The position numbers and the translations under genes were made by a program. The notes under the pieces are model-generated. The model was not told the DNA's origin. It worked only from the letters and a program-made list of their open reading frames with translations, and made no database searches. Below are positions 6,541 to 28,439 of a stretch of DNA of 32,030 nt, piece after piece; the first letter of the stretch is position 1; the number at the start of each line of letters is the position of its first letter. The stretch is from a virus. Taxonomy: Duplodnaviria > Heunggongvirae > Uroviricota > Caudoviricetes. The stretch is from the IMG/VR virus record IMGVR_UViG_2778261510_000008; one strand, 5' to 3'.

Positions 6541-8412
6541 TTACTGTGGTGGAGTCCATATTTTTAATGCGATATTTTTATATGTTTCCCCGCGTGCTGT
6601 AATAGCATTGGCGTTGAATTCAACATATTCTTCAAGATTGATATCGTTATTTGCAGATAAGAATCTTACCAGCTCAGGGTTGTTTTGATAAAAGTTTGCG
6701 CATAATGTCTGGCAAAGAACGTTTTCACCGCTATATACTGTTTTCTTTTCTGAGTACAACTTATCATTTAATGATCTGTTTCTTGAACGGGGAAGCAATA
6801 TCAAACCACCAATCAAGTTTCTCTTCTGCTTGTATTCAGTGTCAGATGAAAAACCGAAGGCTGATGAAGGCATGGTTGTATCATCAATTACTTCGCGAAG
6901 AACATGTTCTATATCAAAAGTTTTCATACCTTTGTCGCGTTGCATATAAACATCAAACCCTACTTTGTTTGTTAGGTTTATCTCGTTTTCAATGTAAGAG
7001 GCGATACGAGCCAGAATATAAAGCATATCTGATCTGGTTTTATTCTCGTACGCCATTTCTGGTATTCTATTAAGTAATGTATAATGCTTGTCCCATTCGT
7101 TTTGGACATAGCTTAACAATGCTGGATAATCTTTCCCTCTAACATCTTTAGCTAAGCTGAATGCAATATCTTTTAAATTGTCATAAGTGTTTGCTTTCTT
7201 CGATACGATTCGACTGGTGAGAATTAGATCAATATACTTAGATATTATTTGGATTTTTTTCTTACGAACATCACGGGTATCTGATAAATCTACAGAAGAT
7301 AGAATTATCATGGTTTGAAAGTTGAATTTTCTAATTCCATTATAGAAAACGTCAGGGTAATCAGTAGTCAGATTTTTCTCAGCATTGGCAATTGTCAAGC
7401 ATAAATTTGCATACTCGGGTATATCTGTTTTTGCAAAGTTATAAAAATCATCGGAAGTAATCAGACCGATATCATGGGTTTTATCTTCAAACCACCGATG
7501 ATAAGAATCATTGATTTTATCAAAATCACCAGGTGCATCGCCTTTATTTTTACCTCTAATAGTGTTTGCCCATTTAGCGCGTAATAAATTCCTGATAAAT
7601 AGAGAATCTCCCTCTGGATCTTTGTCTCTAAGTTTAGACATGGTTTTTACCCATACCTGATGGCATTCTTGACTATCTTCGGGGCTAGTGATTTTTGACA
7701 GAATAAAACCTTTTAATAGTTCAATTGCACCGAGTCTCAAGCCACGGTCATTCATTGTGACAAATACTCTATGCGCTTCTGACTCGCTTGAGACGGATAT
7801 ATCTATTAAAAGAACTTTTTCCATTAAATAATCAATAAAGAAAGAAACTTTTTCTTTTATTGTTGGATCCAAAGCATCCTCAATGGATTTTATTGCCTCA
7901 ATTATTCTTTTATCGCTATCACTAAGATTAGTAATGCTATCTACATCATCTAGTGCGTCTGCAAGACATTTTGCGTTGTCAGTATATTTTGTGAATATTT
8001 CTTTTCTAACTTCGGAAAATTCAATATTGAAATCGCGTTCCCCATAAGAAACACTCCCAATAAAATTTTCTAAAGCCAAAGTGTCTGGAATGTGGTTATC
8101 CTTGATATATCTTTCAAAAAAAACAAGAAGAATAAATATAGACGTGATTCGTTGTTGTCCATCAATCAACGGGCGCTTACCGTTGGTTTCAACCGCCGTA
8201 ATGATAGAACCAAGAAAGTATGGAGGATAAGATGATACATCGCGTCTACCATGAGTAGACTCATAACTCAGTAAGAAAGCATTTTGAATGTCATTTAACA
8301 TTTCAAGAAAATGCCTGCTTTCCCATTTATAATCCCTCTGAAAATATGGTAGTGAGTACTTGCTTTGAAAGCAGGTTTTTAAACTTAGAGTCGATGGGGT
8401 TATATACGCCAT
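6541..8412 (-). CDS. DUF262 (ParB-like, DGQQR motif) + DUF1524-like (His-Me finger) protein; candidate GmrSD-like type IV restriction / anti-phage defence protein in the P2 tin/old hotspot
   Basis: Long ORF 6541..8466; N-terminal motifs YFQRDYKW and LIDGQQRITS; C-terminal FDIEHVL ... NLIGGLILLPRSRNRSLNDK; AT-rich codon usage unlike the phage backbone; ATG at 8412 has AAGGA SD, ATG at 8466 has none. Confidence 0.6.
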   Translation of the reverse strand: MAYITPSTLSLKTCFQSKYSLPYFQRDYKWESRHFLEMLNDIQNAFLLSYESTHGRRDVSSYPPYFLGSIITAVETNGKRPLIDGQQRITSIFILLVFFERYIKDNHIPDTLALENFIGSVSYGERDFNIEFSEVRKEIFTKYTDNAKCLADALDDVDSITNLSDSDKRIIEAIKSIEDALDPTIKEKVSFFIDYLMEKVLLIDISVSSESEAHRVFVTMNDRGLRLGAIELLKGFILSKITSPEDSQECHQVWVKTMSKLRDKDPEGDSLFIRNLLRAKWANTIRGKNKGDAPGDFDKINDSYHRWFEDKTHDIGLITSDDFYNFAKTDIPEYANLCLTIANAEKNLTTDYPDVFYNGIRKFNFQTMIILSSVDLSDTRDVRKKKIQIISKYIDLILTSRIVSKKANTYDNLKDIAFSLAKDVRGKDYPALLSYVQNEWDKHYTLLNRIPEMAYENKTRSDMLYILARIASYIENEINLTNKVGFDVYMQRDKGMKTFDIEHVLREVIDDTTMPSSAFGFSSDTEYKQKRNLIGGLILLPRSRNRSLNDKLYSEKKTVYSGENVLCQTLCANFYQNNPELVRFLSANNDINLEEYVEFNANAITARGETYKNIALKIWTPPQ

Positions 8413-8571
8413 TAATACATCCTTTTGTCTGTAAAGAGCTTCTGTGAGAAGCGCATTATACTGCATTAAGCTGCATTAGTTTTCTACATGTTAATTGATG
8501 TCTACAAAGTAGATTTGACAAGTTTTTGAGGTGGGCGTGCACTTGCATTCAAACCGACCCATGAAGCGGGC

Positions 8572-17066: not shown

Positions 17067-17496
17067 TGCCGTCACGGTGCTGAAAACCAGTCCCGAGATG
17101 CTGCGGATATTCGTGGATAACGGGAGTATTGCCTCCACACTGGCGACGTCGCTGTCATTTGAAAAGCGTTACACGCTCAATGTCATTGTGACCGACTTTA
17201 CCGGTGATTTTGACCTGCTCATCGTGCCGGTGCTGGCGTGGCTGCGGGAAAATCAGCCCGACATCATGACCACTGACGAAGGCCAGAAAAAGGGCTTCAC
17301 GTTTTATGCAGACATCAACAATGACAGCAGCTTTGATATCAGCATCAGCCTGATGCTGACCGAGCGCACGCTGGTCAGTGAGGTGGACGGCGCGCTGCAT
17401 GTGAAGAATATCCCGGAACCCACGCCGCCGGAGCCGGTCACCCGCCCGATGGAGCTTTATATCAATGGCGAACTGGTGAGCAAGTGGGATGAATGA
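17029..17496 (+). CDS. R: Tail completion protein, P2 gpR-like
   Basis: 155-aa ORF, order and size. Confidence 0.85.
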   Translation: MLKPDSLRRALTDAVTVLKTSPEMLRIFVDNGSIASTLATSLSFEKRYTLNVIVTDFTGDFDLLIVPVLAWLRENQPDIMTTDEGQKKGFTFYADINNDSSFDISISLMLTERTLVSEVDGALHVKNIPEPTPPEPVTRPMELYINGELVSKWDE

Positions 17497-17941
17497 GTTT
17501 AAGCGTTTTGAAGACCGGCTGACCGGACTGATTGAGTCGCTGTCACCGTCAGGGCGTCGGCGACTGAGTGCCGAACTGGCGAAACGTCTGCGGCAGAGTC
17601 AGCAGCGTCGGGTGATGGCACAGAAAGCCCCGGACGGCACACCCTACGCGCCACGCCAGCAGCAGAGCGCCAGAAAAAAGACCGGTCGTGTTAAGCGAAA
17701 AATGTTTGCGAAACTTATCACCAGTCGTTTTTTGCATATCCGCGCCAGCCCTGAACAGGCATCAATGGAGTTTTACGGCGGGAAGTCACCGAAAATCGCC
17801 AGTGTGCATCAGTTTGGTCTGTCGGAAGAAAACCGGAAAGACGGTAAGAAAATTGATTATCCGGCGCGTCCTCTGCTCGGCTTTACCGGTGAGGATGTGC
17901 AGATGATTGAAGAGATTATCCTGGCTCACCTCGACCGTTAG
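17489..17941 (+). CDS. S: Tail completion protein, P2 gpS-like
   Basis: 150-aa ORF, order and size. Confidence 0.85.
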   Translation: MNEFKRFEDRLTGLIESLSPSGRRRLSAELAKRLRQSQQRRVMAQKAPDGTPYAPRQQQSARKKTGRVKRKMFAKLITSRFLHIRASPEQASMEFYGGKSPKIASVHQFGLSEENRKDGKKIDYPARPLLGFTGEDVQMIEEIILAHLDR

Positions 17942-19900: not shown

Positions 19901-20504
19901 TTCGCGACTGCTGCCGACCGGCTCATCACCGCTTGAAGTCGCTGCTGCAAAAGCCTGTGCGGAAATTGAAAAAACGCCGGTCAGTATTCGTGAGCTGTGG
20001 AACCCGGACACCTGCCCGGCAAATCTGCTGCCGTGGCTGGCGTGGTCATTTTCGGTTGACCGCTGGGATGATAAGTGGCCGGAAGCGACAAAACGCGCTG
20101 TTATCCGCGATGCGTATTTCATTCACTGCCATAAGGGCACTATAGGCGCAATCCGGCGTGTGGTGGAGCCGCTCGGCTATCTGATTGAGGTGAGGGAGTG
20201 GTGGCAACTCAATGAGGAGCCGGGGACGTTCCGTATCGTTGTTGGCGTGCTTGAGCAGGGTATTACCGAGGAAATGTATCAGGAGCTGGAGCGCCTCGTT
20301 GCTGATGCAAAACCGGCAAGCCGCCATCTGACGGGACTGGCTATCAGTTTAAGTACAACCGGCAACATTTTTGCCGGTGCGGGATGCTATCACGGCGACG
20401 CCCTGACAGTTTATCCCTACACCCCGGAGGCCATTATTGTCGGAGGGGATTATTTCCCGGCCTCGGCCATTCATTTAATTGATAACCTGAGAGTAAACGC
20501 ATGA
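19893..20504 (+). CDS. I: Baseplate protein, P2 gpI-like
   Basis: 203-aa ORF between J and H. Confidence 0.8.
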   Translation: MSDSRLLPTGSSPLEVAAAKACAEIEKTPVSIRELWNPDTCPANLLPWLAWSFSVDRWDDKWPEATKRAVIRDAYFIHCHKGTIGAIRRVVEPLGYLIEVREWWQLNEEPGTFRIVVGVLEQGITEEMYQELERLVADAKPASRHLTGLAISLSTTGNIFAGAGCYHGDALTVYPYTPEAIIVGGDYFPASAIHLIDNLRVNA

Positions 20505-21784
20505 CAGTGAAATACTACGCCATTCTGACTAATCAGGGCGCAGCACGGCTGGCTAACGCGACGATGCTTGGCAGTAAGCTGAATCTGACGCAAATGGCCG
20601 TTGGTGATGCGAATGGTGTCTTGCCGACACCAGACCCGGCACAGACAAAACTGATTAACCAGAAACGCATCGCGCCGCTGAATCTTCTGAGTGTTGACCC
20701 GAACAACCAGAGCCAGATTATTGCGGAGCAAATTATCCCTGAGAACGAGGGTGGATTCTGGATCCGTGAGATTGGGCTTTATGATGATGAAGGCGTACTC
20801 ATTGCGGTGGCGAACTGCCCGGAAACGTACAAACCGCAGTTACAGGAAGGCAGCGGTCGTACCCAGACTATCCGCATGATTCTGGTTGTCACGAATACCG
20901 AAGCTATTACGCTGAAAATCGACCCGTCGGTGGTACTGGCGACCCGTAAATACGTGGATGATGAAGTCCTGGAATTAAGGCTGTATGTGGATGACCAGAT
21001 GAGAAACCACATTGCCGCACAGGATCCTCATACCCAGTATGCACAGAAACATAATCCGACATTTACCGGAGAACCAAAAGCGCCGACTCCTGATGCAGGA
21101 AATAACACCACGCGGATTGCGACCACTGCGTTTGTACAGGCTGCTATTACCGCTCTGATTAATGGTGCGCCTGCCACGCTGGACACACTGAAAGAAATTG
21201 CCGCAGCCATTAACAATGACCCGAAATTCAGCACCACCATTAACAATGCGCTGGCAGGTAAACAACCGCTGGACAATACGCTGACTCATTTGAGTGGAAA
21301 GGATGTTGCCGGTCTTCTCGCATACCTTGGTTTGGGAGAAGGTGCTCCAACTATTGGCGTTCCGTTCTTCTGGCCCTCCGCTGCAATGCCAAATACTGTA
21401 ATCGACAGCTGGTCCGGTATGGTGTTTTTGAAGTTCAACGGGGCGAAATTTTCTGCCTCTGATTACCCTGTGCTGGCGAAAGTGTTTCCTTCGCTGGTAT
21501 TACCTGAAGCCCGCGGTGATTTCATTCGTATCTGGGATGACGGGCGAGGTGCAGATGGTGGTCGCGAATTATTAAGCTGGCAGGAAGCTACAAACTTTTC
21601 TCAGTTTGCCGGGAATATAGGCGGAGGTGCGGGACACGCAATTAACTTTCATGATGGCATCGCCGGAAATCAGCCAGGATTTTCACGATTTAATTTCACC
21701 AGTAACTCTGTGGGTGATGGTGTGAATTTTGTTGCTGTCAGACCGCGAAATATTGCATTTAACTTTCTGGTGAGGGCTAAATAA
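20501..21784 (+). CDS. H: Tail fibre protein: P2 gpH-like constant N-terminal part fused to a variable C-terminal part lying inside the invertible segment
   Basis: 427 aa; N-terminus MTVKYYAILTNQGAARLANA... as recalled for P2 H; crossover site lies within the coding sequence at 21315..21340. Confidence 0.85.
   Translation: MTVKYYAILTNQGAARLANATMLGSKLNLTQMAVGDANGVLPTPDPAQTKLINQKRIAPLNLLSVDPNNQSQIIAEQIIPENEGGFWIREIGLYDDEGVLIAVANCPETYKPQLQEGSGRTQTIRMILVVTNTEAITLKIDPSVVLATRKYVDDEVLELRLYVDDQMRNHIAAQDPHTQYAQKHNPTFTGEPKAPTPDAGNNTTRIATTAFVQAAITALINGAPATLDTLKEIAAAINNDPKFSTTINNALAGKQPLDNTLTHLSGKDVAGLLAYLGLGEGAPTIGVPFFWPSAAMPNTVIDSWSGMVFLKFNGAKFSASDYPVLAKVFPSLVLPEARGDFIRIWDDGRGADGGRELLSWQEATNFSQFAGNIGGGAGHAINFHDGIAGNQPGFSRFNFTSNSVGDGVNFVAVRPRNIAFNFLVRAK
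21315..21340. repeat. Left recombination site (gix/cix/hix-like 26 bp) inside the tail fibre gene
   Basis: ttctcgcataccttggtttgggagaa is an imperfect inverted copy of 23061..23086; homology continues into ggtgct on both sides and preserves the reading frame. Confidence 0.65.
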
Positions 21785-22377
21785 TGAAACCTGTTTTTGA
21801 TGAAAATGGGCTGGCTACAGTGCCGGGCGATATGCGTTGTTTTTATTATGATGCTGAAACATCTGAGTATACGGGCTGGTCTGATGAATATATTAATAAT
21901 GGCGTAAGTATGCCCGCCTGTTCCACTGGTATTGACCCGGGCGAAAACATTCCGGGGAAAGTGGCAGTATTTACGGGTAAGGGATGGAGCCATGAAGAAG
22001 ACCATCGCAATGAGACTGTTTACTCAACAGAAAATGGCGCAGCTGTTACAGTGGATTATATCGGTGCCATCAAAAACGGTTATGTCACGCTTTCACCGTT
22101 AACGACATATGATAAATGGGATGGTGAGAAATGGGTGACAGATACTGAGGCACAGCATAACGCCGCAGTAGAAGCAGCAGAAGCACAGCGCCAGTCACTG
22201 ATTGATGCAGCAATGGCTTCCATTAGTCTGATTCAGCTGAAATTACAGGCCGGACGGAAACTGACTCAGGCAGAAACAACCCGACTTAACGCCGTGCTGG
22301 ATTACATTGACGCGGTGACGGCAACAGATACCAGCACCGCGCCGGATGTCATCTGGCCTGAACTGCCGGAGGCGTAG
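21784..22377 (+). CDS. Tail fibre assembly chaperone (gpG/U-like), current orientation
   Basis: 197-aa ORF right after H; C-terminal TSTAPD-x-x-WP motif shared with the convergent ORF. Confidence 0.75.
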
Positions 22378-22777
22378 GCCATTCAATATCGGGTGCTGTT
22401 GAAGTATCAACACGCATCAGCAGCACACGGTATTTCTTCCATTCGGTGAGAGTTGAAGTTTCTTCATCAGTTGCGATATCAGCATCAACAGCATCCTGAC
22501 GCCAGGATATTTCACTGTCAGCTTTTTCCCGTAATTGGGATTTTTTAACTTCAGCAATAGCTATTAATTCCTTTTTGGTCGGCTGAGGAATATCTATCAG
22601 TGCTGGTTTTCCATTCAGTGTTCCAATCTGTTTTCCTGGTGGAATATCCATAAATAACTTTTTATGTTCTTCCTCACTGACTATTACACCATCATCAGGC
22701 CACAGACCTGATGCCTCAAATTTTTCTTTCTCCGATATGGGGAAAAAGCCATTTGCTTTAGCGCTCCATACGTACAT
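22349..22777 (-). CDS. Alternative tail fibre assembly chaperone (U'-like), convergent
   Basis: 142-aa ORF ending in [15 protein letters not shown], like the + strand chaperone; sits inside the invertible segment. Confidence 0.7.
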
Positions 22778-22778
22778 A

Positions 22779-23086
22779 TCAATACCCCACCGCTATAATG
22801 TCCACATTAAATCCCCCGGGACCTGCCTGCCAGATGCTGGCCCCTGTTAATGATTTTGTTTGATGAACAACCGCCACATTTGCTGGCGATAGTGTTTCAG
22901 TTGTTACAGTACCGATATCATTCCAGTTAATTGAGATGGAATAGTTCGTTGTTGTAAACGACCGGGGGAAAGTTATGTGTCTTGCATTGGTGCCAACAGG
23001 AAATCCAAGATAAACACGCTGAATTATCATTCCTCCAGGTAACATAACCCAGTTAGCACCTTCTCCAAAACCAACGTTTATGAAAA
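22779..23086 (-). CDS. Silent alternative tail fibre C-terminal cassette (Sv'-like); expressed only after inversion fuses it to the H constant part
   Basis: Reading frame open from the right crossover site; encodes [14 protein letters not shown]... whose first residues parallel GLGEGA in H; no own start or promoter. Confidence 0.6.
23061..23086. repeat. Right recombination site (gix/cix/hix-like 26 bp)
   Basis: ttctccaaaaccaacgtttatgaaaa; its reverse complement ttttcataaacgttggttttggagaa aligns with 21315..21340. Confidence 0.65.
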
Positions 23087-23140
23087 TGCAGAAATAACGA
23101 GCAAATGGCATCATTCCTGCTTTTGTCAGAGGGATCCACT

Positions 23141-23734
23141 ATGCTTATTGGCTATGTACGCGTGTCAACAAATGACCAGAACACGGAATTGCAGCGTAAC
23201 GCGCTGGAGTGCGCGGGATGTGAGCGGATTTTTGAGGACAAAATCAGCGGCACGAAGTCCGACAGGCCGGGACTGAAAAAACTGCTCAGGACATTATCGG
23301 AGGGGGATACACTGGTAGTCTGGAAGCTGGACCGGCTGGGGCGTAGTATGCGGCATCTGGTCATTCTGGTTGAGGAGTTGCGCGAACGCGGCATTAATTT
23401 TCGCAGCCTGACGGATGCTATTGATACCAGCACGCCGATGGGGCGTTTTTTCTTTCATGTGATGGGTGCCCTGGCTGAAATGGAACGAGAACTCATTGTC
23501 GAGCGGACTCGGGCCGGGCTGGAAGCGGCCAGAGCCAAAGGTCGTATTGGTGGCAGACGACCGAAACTCACCGCGAGTGAGTGGGAGCAGGCCGGGCGTT
23601 TGCTGGCTGCAGGGGAGTCACGTCAACGCGTGGCACTGATTTTTGATATTGGTCTGTCCACGCTCTATAAAAAATTTCCCTCATCAGCGACAAAGAATAA
23701 ATTGTGTCATCCCTTAGCCAACCGGGACAAATAG
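23141..23734 (+). CDS. Serine DNA invertase, Gin/Cin/Hin/Pin family
   Basis: 197 aa from ATG at 23141; N-terminal catalytic motif GYVRVSTNDQ, resolvase fold residues, C-terminal HTH; next to the inverted-repeat sites. Confidence 0.85.
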   Translation: MLIGYVRVSTNDQNTELQRNALECAGCERIFEDKISGTKSDRPGLKKLLRTLSEGDTLVVWKLDRLGRSMRHLVILVEELRERGINFRSLTDAIDTSTPMGRFFFHVMGALAEMERELIVERTRAGLEAARAKGRIGGRRPKLTASEWEQAGRLLAAGESRQRVALIFDIGLSTLYKKFPSSATKNKLCHPLANRDK

Positions 23735-23793: not shown

Positions 23794-24984
23794 ATGAGTG
23801 ACTATCATCACGGCGTGCAGGTGCTGGAGATTAACGACGGCACCCGCGTCATTTCCACCGTATCCACCGCCATTGTCGGCATGGTCTGCACGGCCAGCGA
23901 TGCGGATGCGGAAATCTTCCCCCTCAATAAACCGGTGCTGATTACCAATGTGCAGAGCGCAATTGCAAAGGCCGGTAAAAAAGGCACGCTGGCGGCGTCG
24001 TTGCAGGCCATCGCTGACCAGTCAAAACCGGTCACCGTAGTCGTGCGTGTGGAAGACGGCACCGGCGACGACGAAGAAACGAAACTCGCGCAGACTGTTT
24101 CCAATATCATCGGTACCACCGACGAAAACGGTCAGTACACCGGACTGAAAGCCCTGCTGGCGGCGGAGTCGGTAACCGGTGTTAAACCGCGTATTCTCGG
24201 TGTGCCGGGACTGGACACCAAAGAGGTGGCTGTTGCACTGGCATCAGTCTGTCAGAAGCTGCGCGCTTTCGGGTATATCAGCGCATGGGGCTGTAAAACC
24301 ATTTCCGAGGTGAAAGCCTACCGCCAGAATTTCAGCCAGCGTGAGCTGATGGTCATCTGGCCGGATTTCCTCGCATGGGATACGGTCACCAGTACCACCT
24401 CCACCGCGTATGCCACCGCCCGTGCGCTGGGTCTGCGCGCTAAAATCGACCAGGAGCAGGGCTGGCATAAAACGCTGTCCAACGTCGGGGTGAACGGTGT
24501 TACCGGCATCAGCGCATCTGTATTCTGGGATTTGCAGGAGTCCGGCACCGATGCTGACCTGCTGAACGAGGCAGGCGTCACAACGCTGATTCGCCGCGAC
24601 GGTTTCCGCTTCTGGGGTAACCGTACCTGCTCTGATGACCCGCTGTTCCTCTTTGAAAACTACACCCGCACCGCGCAGGTGCTGGCCGACACGATGGCTG
24701 AGGCGCACATGTGGGCGGTGGACAAGCCCATCACCGCAACGCTGATTCGCGACATCGTTGACGGCATCAATGCCAAATTCCGTGAGCTGAAAACAAATGG
24801 CTATATCGTGGATGCGACCTGCTGGTTCAGCGAAGAATCCAACGATGCGGAAACCCTCAAGGCCGGAAAACTGTATATCGACTACGACTATACCCCGGTG
24901 CCTCCTCTTGAAAACCTGACCCTGCGCCAGCGTATTACCGATAAATACCTGGCGAATCTGGTCACCTCGGTTAACAGCAATTAA
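23794..24984 (+). CDS. FI: Tail sheath protein, P2 gpFI-like
   Basis: 396-aa ORF, size and order. Confidence 0.9.
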   Translation: MSDYHHGVQVLEINDGTRVISTVSTAIVGMVCTASDADAEIFPLNKPVLITNVQSAIAKAGKKGTLAASLQAIADQSKPVTVVVRVEDGTGDDEETKLAQTVSNIIGTTDENGQYTGLKALLAAESVTGVKPRILGVPGLDTKEVAVALASVCQKLRAFGYISAWGCKTISEVKAYRQNFSQRELMVIWPDFLAWDTVTSTTSTAYATARALGLRAKIDQEQGWHKTLSNVGVNGVTGISASVFWDLQESGTDADLLNEAGVTTLIRRDGFRFWGNRTCSDDPLFLFENYTRTAQVLADTMAEAHMWAVDKPITATLIRDIVDGINAKFRELKTNGYIVDATCWFSEESNDAETLKAGKLYIDYDYTPVPPLENLTLRQRITDKYLANLVTSVNSN

Positions 24985-24996
24985 GGAGCCTGACCG

Positions 24997-25515
24997 ATGG
25001 CAATGCCGCGCAAACTCAAGTTAATGAACGTCTTTCTGAACGGCTACAGCTATCAGGGCGTTGCAAAGTCCGTCACGCTGCCAAAACTGACCCGTAAGCT
25101 CGAAAACTATCGCGGTGCGGGGATGAACGGCAGCGCACCGGTAGACCTCGGCCTTGATGACGATGCGCTGTCAATGGAGTGGTCGCTCGGGGGCTTCCCG
25201 GATTCGGTTATCTGGGAGCTTTACGCCGCAACCGGTGTGGATGCCGTGCCGATTCGTTTTGCAGGCTCTTACCAGCGCGACGATACCGGCGAAACGGTGG
25301 CCGTCGAAGTGGTCATGCGTGGACGTCAGAAAGAAATCGACACCGGCGAGGGTAAACAGGGAGAAGACACTGAGTCGAAAATCTCCGTGGTCTGCACCTA
25401 TTTCCGGCTGACGATGGACGGTAAGGAGCTGGTCGAAATCGACACCATCAACATGATTGAGAAGGTGAACGGCGTCGACCGGCTGGAGCAACACCGCCGC
25501 AATATCGGCCTGTGA
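24997..25515 (+). CDS. FII: Tail tube protein, P2 gpFII-like
   Basis: 172-aa ORF following sheath. Confidence 0.9.
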   Translation: MAMPRKLKLMNVFLNGYSYQGVAKSVTLPKLTRKLENYRGAGMNGSAPVDLGLDDDALSMEWSLGGFPDSVIWELYAATGVDAVPIRFAGSYQRDDTGETVAVEVVMRGRQKEIDTGEGKQGEDTESKISVVCTYFRLTMDGKELVEIDTINMIEKVNGVDRLEQHRRNIGL

Positions 25516-25571: not shown

Positions 25572-25999
25572 ATGAACAAAGAAAATGTCATTACCCTGGA
25601 CAATCCGGTCAAGCGTGGTGAGCAGGTCATCGAACAGGTCACGCTGATGAAACCCAGTGCCGGGACGCTGCGCGGTGTCAGTCTGGCTGCGGTCGCAAAC
25701 TCCGAAGTTGATGCACTAATTAAGGTGTTGCCGCGCATGACGGCACCGATGCTGACCGAGCAGGAAGTTGCCGCACTGGAACTGCCTGACCTTGTGGCGC
25801 TGGCCGGTAAGGTGGTCGGTTTTTTGTCGCCGAACTCGGTGCAGTAACGTTCCCGAAAAATCTCTCGGTCGATGACCTGATGGCGGATGTGGCAGTGATA
25901 TTTCACTGGCCGCCATCAGAACTGTATCCCATGAGCCTGACCGAACTCATCACATGGCGCGAAAAGGCGCTCCGGCGAAGCGGAAACACGAATGAGTAA
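25572..25999 (+). CDS. E: Tail assembly chaperone E (25572..25847) and its -1 frameshift product E+E' (slip at TTTTTTG 25820..25826, ending 25999)
   Basis: 91-aa E ORF; the -1 frame is open from the T6G heptamer to a TAA at 25997..25999, overlapping the start of T; the same arrangement as P2 E/E'. Confidence 0.8.
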
Positions 26000-28439
26000 C
26001 AATGTAAAATTACAGGTATTGCTCAGGGCTGTTGACCAGGCATCCCGCCCGTTTAAATCCATCCGCACAGCGAGCAAATCGCTGTCGGGGGATATCCGGG
26101 AAACACAAAAATCACTGCGCGAGCTGAACGGTCAGGCATCCCGTATTGAGGGATTTCGCAAGACCAGTGCACAGCTCGCCGTGACTGGTCATGCACTTGA
26201 AAAGGCACGGCAGGAGGCCGAAGCCCTTGCCACGCAGTTTAAAAATACCGAACGTCCGACCCGTGCTCAGGCGAAAGTGCTGGAATCCGCAAAGCGTGCG
26301 GCGGAGGACTTACAGGCGAAATATAACCGCCTGACAGATTCCGTTAAACGCCAGCAGCGGGAACTGGCCGCTGTGGGAATTAATACCCGCAATCTTGCAC
26401 ATGATGAGCAGGGACTGAAAAACCGTATCAGTGAAACCACCGCACAGCTTAACCGGCAGCGTGACGCGCTGGCGCGTGTCAGTGCGCAACAGGCAAAACT
26501 TAATGCAGTAAAACAGCGTTATCAGGCCGGAAAGGAACTGGCCGGAAATATGGCCTCAGTGGGCGCTGCCGGTGTGGGGATTGCTGCTGCGGGAACGATG
26601 GCTGGAGTTAAGTTGCTGATGCCCGGTTATGAGTTTGCGCAGAAAAACTCAGAATTGCAGGCCGTGCTCGGTGTGGCAAAAGACTCCGCCGAAATGACCG
26701 CACTCCGCAAACAGGCGCGCCAGCTCGGCGACAATACCGCAGCCTCGGCAGATGATGCAGCCGGTGCGCAGATTATTATTGCGAAAGCCGGTGGGGATGT
26801 TGATGCCATTCAGGCGGCAACGCCGGTCACGCTGAATATGGCGCTGGCGAACCGTCGCACGATGGAAGAAAACGCCGCCCTGCTGATGGGGATGAAATCC
26901 GCCTTTCAGCTTTCAAACGATAAGGTCGCTCATATCGGGGATGTTCTCTCCATGACGATGAACAAAACCGCCGCCGATTTTGATGGCATGAGCGATGCGC
27001 TGACCTATGCCGCACCTGTGGCAAAAAATGCTGGTGTCAGCATTGAAGAAACCGCCGCAATGGTCGGGGCGCTGCATGATGCAAAAATTACCGGTTCAAT
27101 GGCGGGGACGGGAAGCCGTGCCGTGTTAAGCCGCCTGCAGGCACCGACGGGAAAAGCATGGGATGCACTGAAAGAGCTTGGCGTGAAAACCTCAGACAGT
27201 AAGGGAAACACCCGACCAGTATTTACCATTCTGAAAGAAATGCAGGCCAGCTTTGAGAAAAACCGGCTCGGTACTGCCCAGCAGGCTGAATACATGAAAA
27301 CCATTTTCGGGGAGGAGGCCAGTTCAGCCGCCGCCGTGCTGATGACTGCCGCCTCAACCGGAAAGCTGGACAAACTGACCGCTGCGTTTAAAGCCTCAGA
27401 CGGAAAGACCGCAGAGCTGGTAAATATCATGCAGGACAACCTCGGCGGTGACTTTAAGGAGTTTCAGTCCGCTTATGAGGCGGTGGGGACTGACCTGTTT
27501 GACCAGCAGGAAGGCGCACTGCGTAAGCTCACGCAGACGGCCACAAAGTATGTGTTAAAACTCGACGGCTGGATCCAGAAAAACAAATCACTGGCGTCAA
27601 CCATCGGCCTTATTGTCGGTGGTGCACTGGCGCTTACTGGCATCATCGGTGCAATTGGTCTTGTAGCCTGGCCGGTTATCACCGGCATTAATGCCATCAT
27701 CGCGGCAGCAGGCGCAATGGGGGCAGTCTTCACGACGGTTGGCAGTGCTGTTATGACCGCCATCGGGGCGATTAGCTGGCCGGTTGTGGCCGTGGTGGCC
27801 ACCATTGTCGCCGGGGCGTTGCTTATCCGTAAATACTGGGAGCCTGTCAGCGCATTCTTTGGCGGTGTGGTTGAAGGGCTGAAAGCAGCATTTGCGCCAG
27901 TGGGGGAACTGTTCACGCCACTTAAGCCGGTGTTTGACTGGCTGGGTGAAAAGTTACAGGCCGCGTGGCAGTGGTTTAAAAACCTGATTGCCCCGGTCAA
28001 AGCTACCCAGGACACCCTGAACCGTTGCCGTGACACGGGCGTCATGTTCGGGCAGGCACTGGCTGACGCGCTGATGCTGCCGCTTAATGCGTTCAACAAA
28101 CTGCGCAGTGGTATTGACTGGGTACTGGAAAAACTCGGTGTTATCAACAAAGAGTCAGACACACTTGACCAGACCGCCGCCAGAACTCAAGCCGCCACGT
28201 ATGGCAGCGGTGGTTATATTCCGGCGACCAGCTCTTATGCAGGTTATCAGGCTTATCAGCCGGTCACGGCACCGGCTGGCCGCTCTTATGTGGACCAGAG
28301 TAAAAACGAATATCACATCAGCCTGACGGGTGGTACTGCACCGGGGACACAGCTTGACCGCCAGTTACAGGATGCGCTCGAAAAATACGAGCGGGATAAA
28401 CGTGCGCGCGCCCGTGCCAGCATGATGCATGACGGTTAA
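25992..28439 (+). CDS. T: Tail tape measure protein, P2 gpT-like
   Basis: 815-aa ORF, coiled-coil N-terminal half, glycine/alanine-rich hydrophobic central segment. Confidence 0.9.
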   Translation: MSNNVKLQVLLRAVDQASRPFKSIRTASKSLSGDIRETQKSLRELNGQASRIEGFRKTSAQLAVTGHALEKARQEAEALATQFKNTERPTRAQAKVLESAKRAAEDLQAKYNRLTDSVKRQQRELAAVGINTRNLAHDEQGLKNRISETTAQLNRQRDALARVSAQQAKLNAVKQRYQAGKELAGNMASVGAAGVGIAAAGTMAGVKLLMPGYEFAQKNSELQAVLGVAKDSAEMTALRKQARQLGDNTAASADDAAGAQIIIAKAGGDVDAIQAATPVTLNMALANRRTMEENAALLMGMKSAFQLSNDKVAHIGDVLSMTMNKTAADFDGMSDALTYAAPVAKNAGVSIEETAAMVGALHDAKITGSMAGTGSRAVLSRLQAPTGKAWDALKELGVKTSDSKGNTRPVFTILKEMQASFEKNRLGTAQQAEYMKTIFGEEASSAAAVLMTAASTGKLDKLTAAFKASDGKTAELVNIMQDNLGGDFKEFQSAYEAVGTDLFDQQEGALRKLTQTATKYVLKLDGWIQKNKSLASTIGLIVGGALALTGIIGAIGLVAWPVITGINAIIAAAGAMGAVFTTVGSAVMTAIGAISWPVVAVVATIVAGALLIRKYWEPVSAFFGGVVEGLKAAFAPVGELFTPLKPVFDWLGEKLQAAWQWFKNLIAPVKATQDTLNRCRDTGVMFGQALADALMLPLNAFNKLRSGIDWVLEKLGVINKESDTLDQTAARTQAATYGSGGYIPATSSYAGYQAYQPVTAPAGRSYVDQSKNEYHISLTGGTAPGTQLDRQLQDALEKYERDKRARARASMMHDG

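Follow-up and report, generated by a model that had tools for sequence, protein, structure and literature searches.

Frameshifting in the tail genes of phage lambda has reportedly been studied by Levin, Hendrix and Casjens (1993) and by Xu, Hendrix and Duda (2004, 2013, 2014), and the E/E' frameshift of phage P2 is said to have been established experimentally by Christie, Temple, Bartlett and Goodwin (2002, J Bacteriol 184:6522). In the chaperone model for lambda G/GT, the tape measure protein is the partner of the short form and the tube protein that of the extension carried by the longer form, and neither form is present in virions (PMC5009743). The class of tail-chaperone frameshifts is defined by synteny and architecture rather than by sequence, and the P2 site has been placed in this conserved lambda G/GT class, with frameshift efficiencies in P2 and related phages 2- to 3-fold above that of lambda (PMC5009743). 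For P2 itself, PMC3091744 (with reference to Christie et al. 2002 and Xu et al. 2004) gives a -1 frameshift at TTTTTTG that yields a 91-aa E and a 142-aa E+E'. Among the P2-like phages of Burkholderia, KS5, KS14 and KL3 conserve both the TTTTTTG and the E/E+E' pair at 49-59% protein identity (PMC3091744).

The window, by which is meant the whole stretch of DNA that was analysed (32,030 nucleotides; IMG/VR record IMGVR_UViG_2778261510_000008), is a complete P2-like (Peduovirus) prophage of Escherichia coli, flanked by a host U32 peptidase gene. Based on the Pfam families of the neighboring genes, its late operon runs in the order FI-FII-E-E'-T-U-D-ogr, which matches the order in the P2 record, with E directly downstream of FII and with U, D and ogr, each assigned to a matching Pfam family, downstream of T. 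The features around the frameshift site are the following:

23794-24984, + strand: FI (tail sheath), assigned to the matching Pfam family.
24997..25515, + strand: FII (tail tube protein), Pfam PF04985 Phage_tube (E=2.3e-60), in the position of gpFII in the P2 record.
25572..25847, + strand: gene E, an ORF from ATG to TAA encoding the 91-aa gpE tail assembly chaperone (PF10109).
25820..25826, + strand: slippery heptamer T_TTT_TTG, identified by its phase, its conservation and the frameshift site annotated at the homologous position of P2.
25826..25999, + strand: E' segment in the -1 frame, 57 codons and a stop, identified by translation, PF06528 and dN/dS.
25992..28439, + strand: T (tape measure protein, 815 aa), Pfam PF10145 PhageMin_Tail (E=1.8e-45).

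FII and T enclose two overlapping ORFs, of which the second is in the -1 frame and has no start signal of its own. The first-pass annotation had placed a T-TTT-TTG heptamer at 25820..25826, near the 3' end of E, and both its position and its phase are exact: the zero frame reads GGT TTT TTG at this point and the first T is the third base of GGT, resulting in the X_XXY_YYZ phase that a tandem -1 slip requires. The TTTTTTG sits 6 codons ahead of the E stop (TAA, 25845-25847). Upstream, the -1 frame is shut by a TAA at 25808-25810 and is open from 25811, such that both frames are open together only at 25811-25847, a zone in which the heptamer is the sole slippery site. Downstream, the -1 frame does remain open to a stop, as had been claimed, and it contains 57 sense codons, the previously given length of 58 being reached only by counting the stop. 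This stop (TAA, 25997-25999) and the ATG of T (25992) share an overlap of 8 nt, in agreement with what had been noted for the end of the -1 frame and the start of T. Joining 25572..25826 to 25826..25999 produces a modelled fusion, gpE+E', of 142 aa (85 + 57), for which the predicted tryptic junction peptide is VVGFLVAELGAVTFPK.

Both parts of the fusion have recognizable families. gpE matches PF10109 Phage_TAC_7 (tail assembly chaperones E/41/14; 47.8 bits against a cutoff of 25, residues 7-85) and the peptide of the -1 frame matches PF06528 Phage_P2_GpE (78.7 bits against a cutoff of 23; E=2e-22), while a sequence search of the PDB returned no relative of E or E+E'. The gene names E/E', the slip site and the tail chaperone role assigned in the first reading are all correct according to the P2 record and these Pfam matches.

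The DNA around the site is 97.7% identical to phage P2 (AF063097) over 701 bp, and 82 phage records match. Across E/E' there are 11 nucleotide differences from P2 in 428 bp, all of which are silent in the translated frame. In E, nine of the differences fall at third codon positions and one is a synonymous first-position change in a Leu codon; the E stop is TAA here and TGA in P2, the same change being a silent third-position change in E', and one further difference is silent in E'. Both gpE and gpE+E' are 100% identical to the P2 proteins, the pair named TAP_BPP2 / TAPFS_BPP2 in UniProt. By exact-sequence look-up, the modelled 142-aa fusion was found deposited as AAD03292.1 / NP_046780.1 / UniProt O64312 ('Tail assembly protein E''), and this letter-for-letter agreement with P2 gpE+E' bears out the earlier estimate of a 91-aa E and a fusion of roughly 142 aa. 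The P2 record AF063097 carries a two-piece joined CDS with the comment 'shares amino terminus with gpE; -1 frameshift; essential tail protein' and also marks a 'site of -1 translational frameshift' at the position immediately following the heptamer. The anatomy and the identity to P2 are direct observations on this window, while the occurrence of frameshifting in P2 and the essentiality of both products are taken from the literature. The feature is the already known P2 E/E+E' frameshift site with the same proteins, a correct but ordinary identification, and comparison of sequences indicates that E/E' in this P2-like prophage are almost certainly expressed by programmed -1 ribosomal frameshifting.

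Using the fusion protein as the query, a scan of one genome per species returned 76 loci, 72 of which were analysable (71 distinct flanking sequences and the window itself). This set is biased to the same architecture, as the query was the fusion and, of six seed peptides, one (LAGKVVGF) extends over the beginning of the slip site; the seed-peptide bias does not force a T6 run or the use of particular synonymous codons. In 71 of the 72 loci, exactly six T precede a G (an A in Yersinia, Rahnella and Lelliottia), in the X_XXY_YYZ phase and near the end of the E homologue, and past the heptamer the -1 frame of these 71 loci is open for 54-74 codons. Beyond the Enterobacterales, the set includes Cupriavidus, Ralstonia, Sphingobium, Sphingomonas and Tolumonas, and the signal is kept in these five genera down to 36-50% protein identity, so that it crosses proteobacterial classes. 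The dual-open zone is merely 34-37 nt long, with the heptamer inside, in 33 of the 72 loci, and in nearly all loci the E' stop is overlapped by the start of a long downstream ORF, with an overlap of 8 nt in 47 of 72. In the distant loci the zero frame of E runs 12-22 codons beyond the slip site, compared to 6 here.

Conservation at the slip site extends to positions that are free to vary in E. Amongst 58 enterobacterial sequences the codons at the site are GGT (57/57), TTT (58/58) and TTG or TTA (58/58), whereas elsewhere in E of the same sequences Gly codons vary freely and Leu positions are mostly CTG. These frozen synonymous sites point to selection acting on the nucleotides of the heptamer themselves, and the comparative set is a clear illustration of such nucleotide-level selection on a slippery heptamer across proteobacterial classes.

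A single locus, from Enterobacter sp. EA-1 (CP025776.1; L056, 1720-1730), does not possess the heptamer and has T5 in place of T6. With T5, E and E' would be joined in frame, and the reading frame is broken once more near the 5' end of E. The likeliest explanation is a homopolymer error in the assembly or else decay of the prophage, and the locus is not read as a counter-example.

A homopolymeric T run could also yield the fusion through transcriptional slippage, in which RNA polymerase would add one U on the T6; the extra U would give a product of the same length differing only at the junction residue, and the lack of a conserved downstream stimulatory RNA structure (see below) is compatible with such a route. 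However, transcriptional slippage is productive in bacteria at runs of about 9 A or T (PMC5009743), while each of the 71 loci has a T run of exactly 6. Further, the base after the run is limited to G or A, which specifies UUG or UUA Leu codons whose tRNAs are able to re-pair on UUU; this restriction and the constant X_XXY_YYZ phase are expected of a ribosomal site and are irrelevant to polymerase slippage. The site is, in addition, annotated and cited as translational. Transcriptional slippage is thus very unlikely as the origin of the fusion, and slippage of the ribosome is the preferred reading.

Read in the E' frame, the DNA had a median dN/dS of 0.175, whereas reading it in the two alternative frames gave 1.49 and 3.44. 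The 11 codons that separate the E stop from an internal ATG (E' codons 8-18) show the contrast as well, with a dN/dS of 0.31 versus 1.6 and 2.6 in the other frames. These ratios are observed values, and they argue that E' is under purifying selection along its length, including the stretch upstream of the internal ATG.

This internal ATG, present in the -1 frame at 25880, is the basis for a different model of E', in which it is an independent small gene of 39 aa expressed with no frameshift. RefSeq/PGAP annotation of E. coli genomes has such a gene, and its sequence occurs on about 1000 contigs. Against it, no Shine-Dalgarno sequence occurs in the 18 nt ahead of the ATG (CTCTCGGTCGATGACCTG), purifying selection is apparent upstream of the ATG (the ratios of 0.31 versus 1.6 and 2.6), the -1 frame is open from the heptamer on in 71/71 loci, and the internal Met is replaced by Ile in 8 of the 72 loci. 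An independent gene would also have no need for a heptamer frozen at its synonymous sites, and the fusion is described both in the P2 record and in the literature. An independent E' is, on this evidence, even less probable than polymerase slippage, and E' is better read as the -1 frame extension of gpE.

The way in which E' is annotated is of practical consequence. The first-pass annotation had stated that a standard ORF caller misses the E' part; no + strand ORF of at least 40 aa is listed in the E' frame, in line with that statement, but PGAP does annotate a 39-aa piece, a separate 'GpE family phage tail protein' that begins at the internal ATG (25880). In E. coli SCU-482, the segment homologous to 25880-25999 (L078, 4481-4600) is given by RefSeq/PGAP as a stand-alone 39-aa gene. 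The exact 39-aa sequence has been deposited on those roughly 1000 contigs, and a closely similar sequence was found in 1,583 of 5,426 complete E. coli genomes; amongst the best 12 of the 1,583 matching genomes, PGAP has the separate 39-aa E' and no ribosomal-slippage fusion. The E' sequence is not invisible to annotation, yet it is routinely mis-modelled, and the 39-aa annotation is a systematic error for an essential tail protein, such that users of automatic annotation alone miss the essential 142-aa product. As P2 E/E+E' has been a textbook recoding case since 2002, the value of the locus as a discovery is small and its practical value lies in annotation.

A count over the 33 genes of the window (8,882 codons) gave 32 X_XXY_YYZ heptamers in phase. 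Apart from the one in E, they have -1 extensions of 0 to 41 codons (most 0-19), and none of these 31 is near the end of its gene; the E heptamer alone both lies no more than 10 codons from the stop and has a long -1 extension that ends on the start of the next gene. Taken alone, this evidence from the window is suggestive of a frameshift in E, and the comparative data make the frameshift conclusive at the level of sequence. That a slippery-looking heptamer merely lies by chance beside a fortuitously open non-coding stretch and gives no second product has a negligible probability and is refuted, for while in-phase heptamers are common at this frequency and a 57-codon open run is not vanishingly rare at such composition, E' matches PF06528 at E=2e-22, has a dN/dS of 0.175 in its own frame only, and retains the heptamer and architecture across proteobacterial classes.

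Two slippery heptamers in phase were also noted in a 150-aa gene (17489-17941, + strand) located upstream of the baseplate and tail-fibre genes: A_AAA_AAG at codon 62, with a -1 extension of just 4 codons, and T_TTT_TTG at codon 80, where the extension is 6 codons. Because a frameshift at either position would truncate the product, the two heptamers are probably incidental.

Sequences on either side of the slip site in E were considered as potential modulators of the frameshift, including two elements that stand out in the window:

25808..25816, + strand: Shine-Dalgarno-like sequence TAAGGTGGT, a candidate modulator with 8/9 matches to the Shine-Dalgarno consensus UAAGGAGGU, read from the sequence.
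25877-25886 / 25910-25919: perfect 10-bp stem CTGATGGCGG / CCGCCATCAG, inside E' and over its most conserved peptide, LMADVAVIFHWPPSE.

The core of the Shine-Dalgarno-like sequence (AAGGTGG, 25809-25815) lies 4 nt upstream of the heptamer, and its codons are nearly frozen in the 58 enterobacterial homologues (Lys at -3 is AAG in 50/52 and Val at -2 is GTG in 55/58), while the other Lys and Val codons of E vary freely in those 58 sequences. No second reading frame explains this constraint, because the -1 frame is untranslated upstream of the slip. In the distant homologues the motif is just partly retained. Shine-Dalgarno stimulators of -1 shifts have spacings of 9-14 nt (PMC5009743), and the spacing of 4 nt rules out the motif as a classical -1 stimulator; it is close to the 3 nt used for +1 shifts (PMC5009743). 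It is conceivable, if rather unlikely, that AAGGTGG is a conserved cis element tuning the E : E+E' ratio, a suggestion drawn from the pattern of codon conservation. Such an element could make the ribosome pause, or put it under tension, across this uncommonly short distance, possibly with the effect of holding back the -1 slip rather than promoting it. If true, the element would add a 5' modulator to a site that is now regarded as stimulator-free.

Downstream of the slip site, RNAalifold on the 72 homologues identified no conserved RNA structure (-1.85 kcal/mol, no covarying pair), in agreement with the reported lack of a downstream hairpin at the P2 and Burkholderia phage sites (PMC3091744). 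As a single sequence, 25827-25926 folds more stably than its shuffles (z = -3.2). A 4-bp hairpin 2 nt past the heptamer was rejected as a stimulator, being 78% paired, located in the dual-coding stretch and too close to the slip site. The 10-bp stem, which was derived from the window sequence itself, is 87% paired across the 72 homologues with a few two-sided changes and was not recovered by RNAalifold in that alignment. It too was rejected as a stimulator, as it starts 50 nt past the slip site and is confounded with coding constraint, and it may simply reflect constraint on the protein. In four loci (Scandinavium, Pseudescherichia) the stem has one GC-to-CG swap that accompanies a Pro-to-Gly replacement.

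Under the frameshifting model, ribosomes would begin at the ATG of E (25572) and most would stop at the TAA at 25845-25847, releasing the 91-aa gpE. A minority would slip back one base on U_UUU_UUG with tRNA-Phe in the P site (on UUU) and tRNA-Leu in the A site (on UUG); the two tRNAs would re-pair on UUU_UUU, reading would resume at GUC (25826), and 57 residues would be added in the -1 frame, giving a 142-aa gpE+E' whose stop falls at the start of T, the tape measure gene. Which proteins E and E' bind is inferred by analogy to lambda gpG/gpGT: the E domain common to both products is expected to coat the tape measure protein, and the tail tube protein would be recruited by the E' domain. By the same analogy, the efficiency of the slip would set a fixed E : E+E' ratio that governs tail assembly, with neither protein being present in the virion.

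Away from the frameshift site, the prophage has two accessory regions that set it apart from P2. A 641-aa protein (6541-8466, - strand) possesses GmrSD_N and GmrSD_C domains of the type IV restriction endonuclease family, and its best PADLOC matches are the HEC-06 and Orf5 models. The gene occupies the site of tin/old in P2, with replication gene A on one side and the portal gene on the other, and, because of this position, it is likely to represent anti-phage defence cargo; a megablast search of 50,697 phage records returned no match to 6541-8466. The second region, at 21315-23734, is an invertible tail-fibre segment in the place of the P2 Z/fun region. Its 32-nt inverted repeat (21315-21346 / 23055-23086) has one arm inside the tail fibre gene H (20501-21784) and the other just before the invertase gene, and the associated genes are as follows:

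21784-22377: G, between the inverted repeats.
22349-22777, strand opposite to G: alternative tail-fibre assembly gene, between the inverted repeats.
22779-23114, strand opposite to G: alternative fibre C-terminus, between the inverted repeats.
23105-23734: serine recombinase / DNA invertase (Resolvase and HTH_7 domains).

Similar modules are found in phage 500465-2 and other P2-like phages.

Compared to the described systems, the locus shares its architecture with lambda G/G-T, in which a small gene, flanked by the genes for the major tail (tube) protein and the tape measure, is also extended by a -1 slip into a fusion. The lambda heptamer, G_GGA_AAG, is found at codon 133 of 140, and its distance to the stop of G is 7 codons (6 codons in E); the lambda T/H overlap is the same 8-nt overlap with the tape measure start as that of E'/T. 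The two pairs are also expected to serve the same role, as chaperones kept at a fixed ratio and missing from the virion (PMC5009743). The arrangement that had been put forward as conserved in tailed phages upstream of the tape measure gene is upheld both by this likeness to lambda G/GT and by the placement of the P2 site in the G/GT class (PMC5009743). The two systems differ in the heptamer (G_GGA_AAG versus T_TTT_TTG), in the length of the extension (144 codons versus 57) and in the phages themselves, lambda being a siphovirus and P2 a contractile-tailed myovirus; at the protein level, blastp of E+E' returned no match to lambda GT at E<=100. E. coli dnaX also depends on a tandem -1 slip on an X_XXY_YYZ heptamer (A_AAA_AAG) with a Shine-Dalgarno-like sequence upstream. 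In dnaX, however, the Shine-Dalgarno sequence is 10 nt upstream and is combined with a 3' stem-loop to give frameshifting of about 50%, whereas here the similar sequence is 4 nt upstream and no 3' structure is conserved, and the dnaX frameshift product is truncated while E+E' is extended.

Closer to the prophage, the Burkholderia phages display the same pattern as the Cupriavidus, Ralstonia and Sphingobium loci of the present set. The pairs of Burkholderia phages and other Peduoviridae are distant homologues, while the copy in the window is the P2 allele itself. The prophage differs from P2 in having a DNA invertase and an invertible tail-fibre segment where P2 has Z/fun and a GmrSD-like gene where P2 has tin/old, accessory differences that do not touch the frameshift region. 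Within that region, the prophage and P2 agree in the FII-E-E'-T gene order, in the codon at which TTTTTTG occurs, and in the 8 nt by which the E' stop and the T start overlap.
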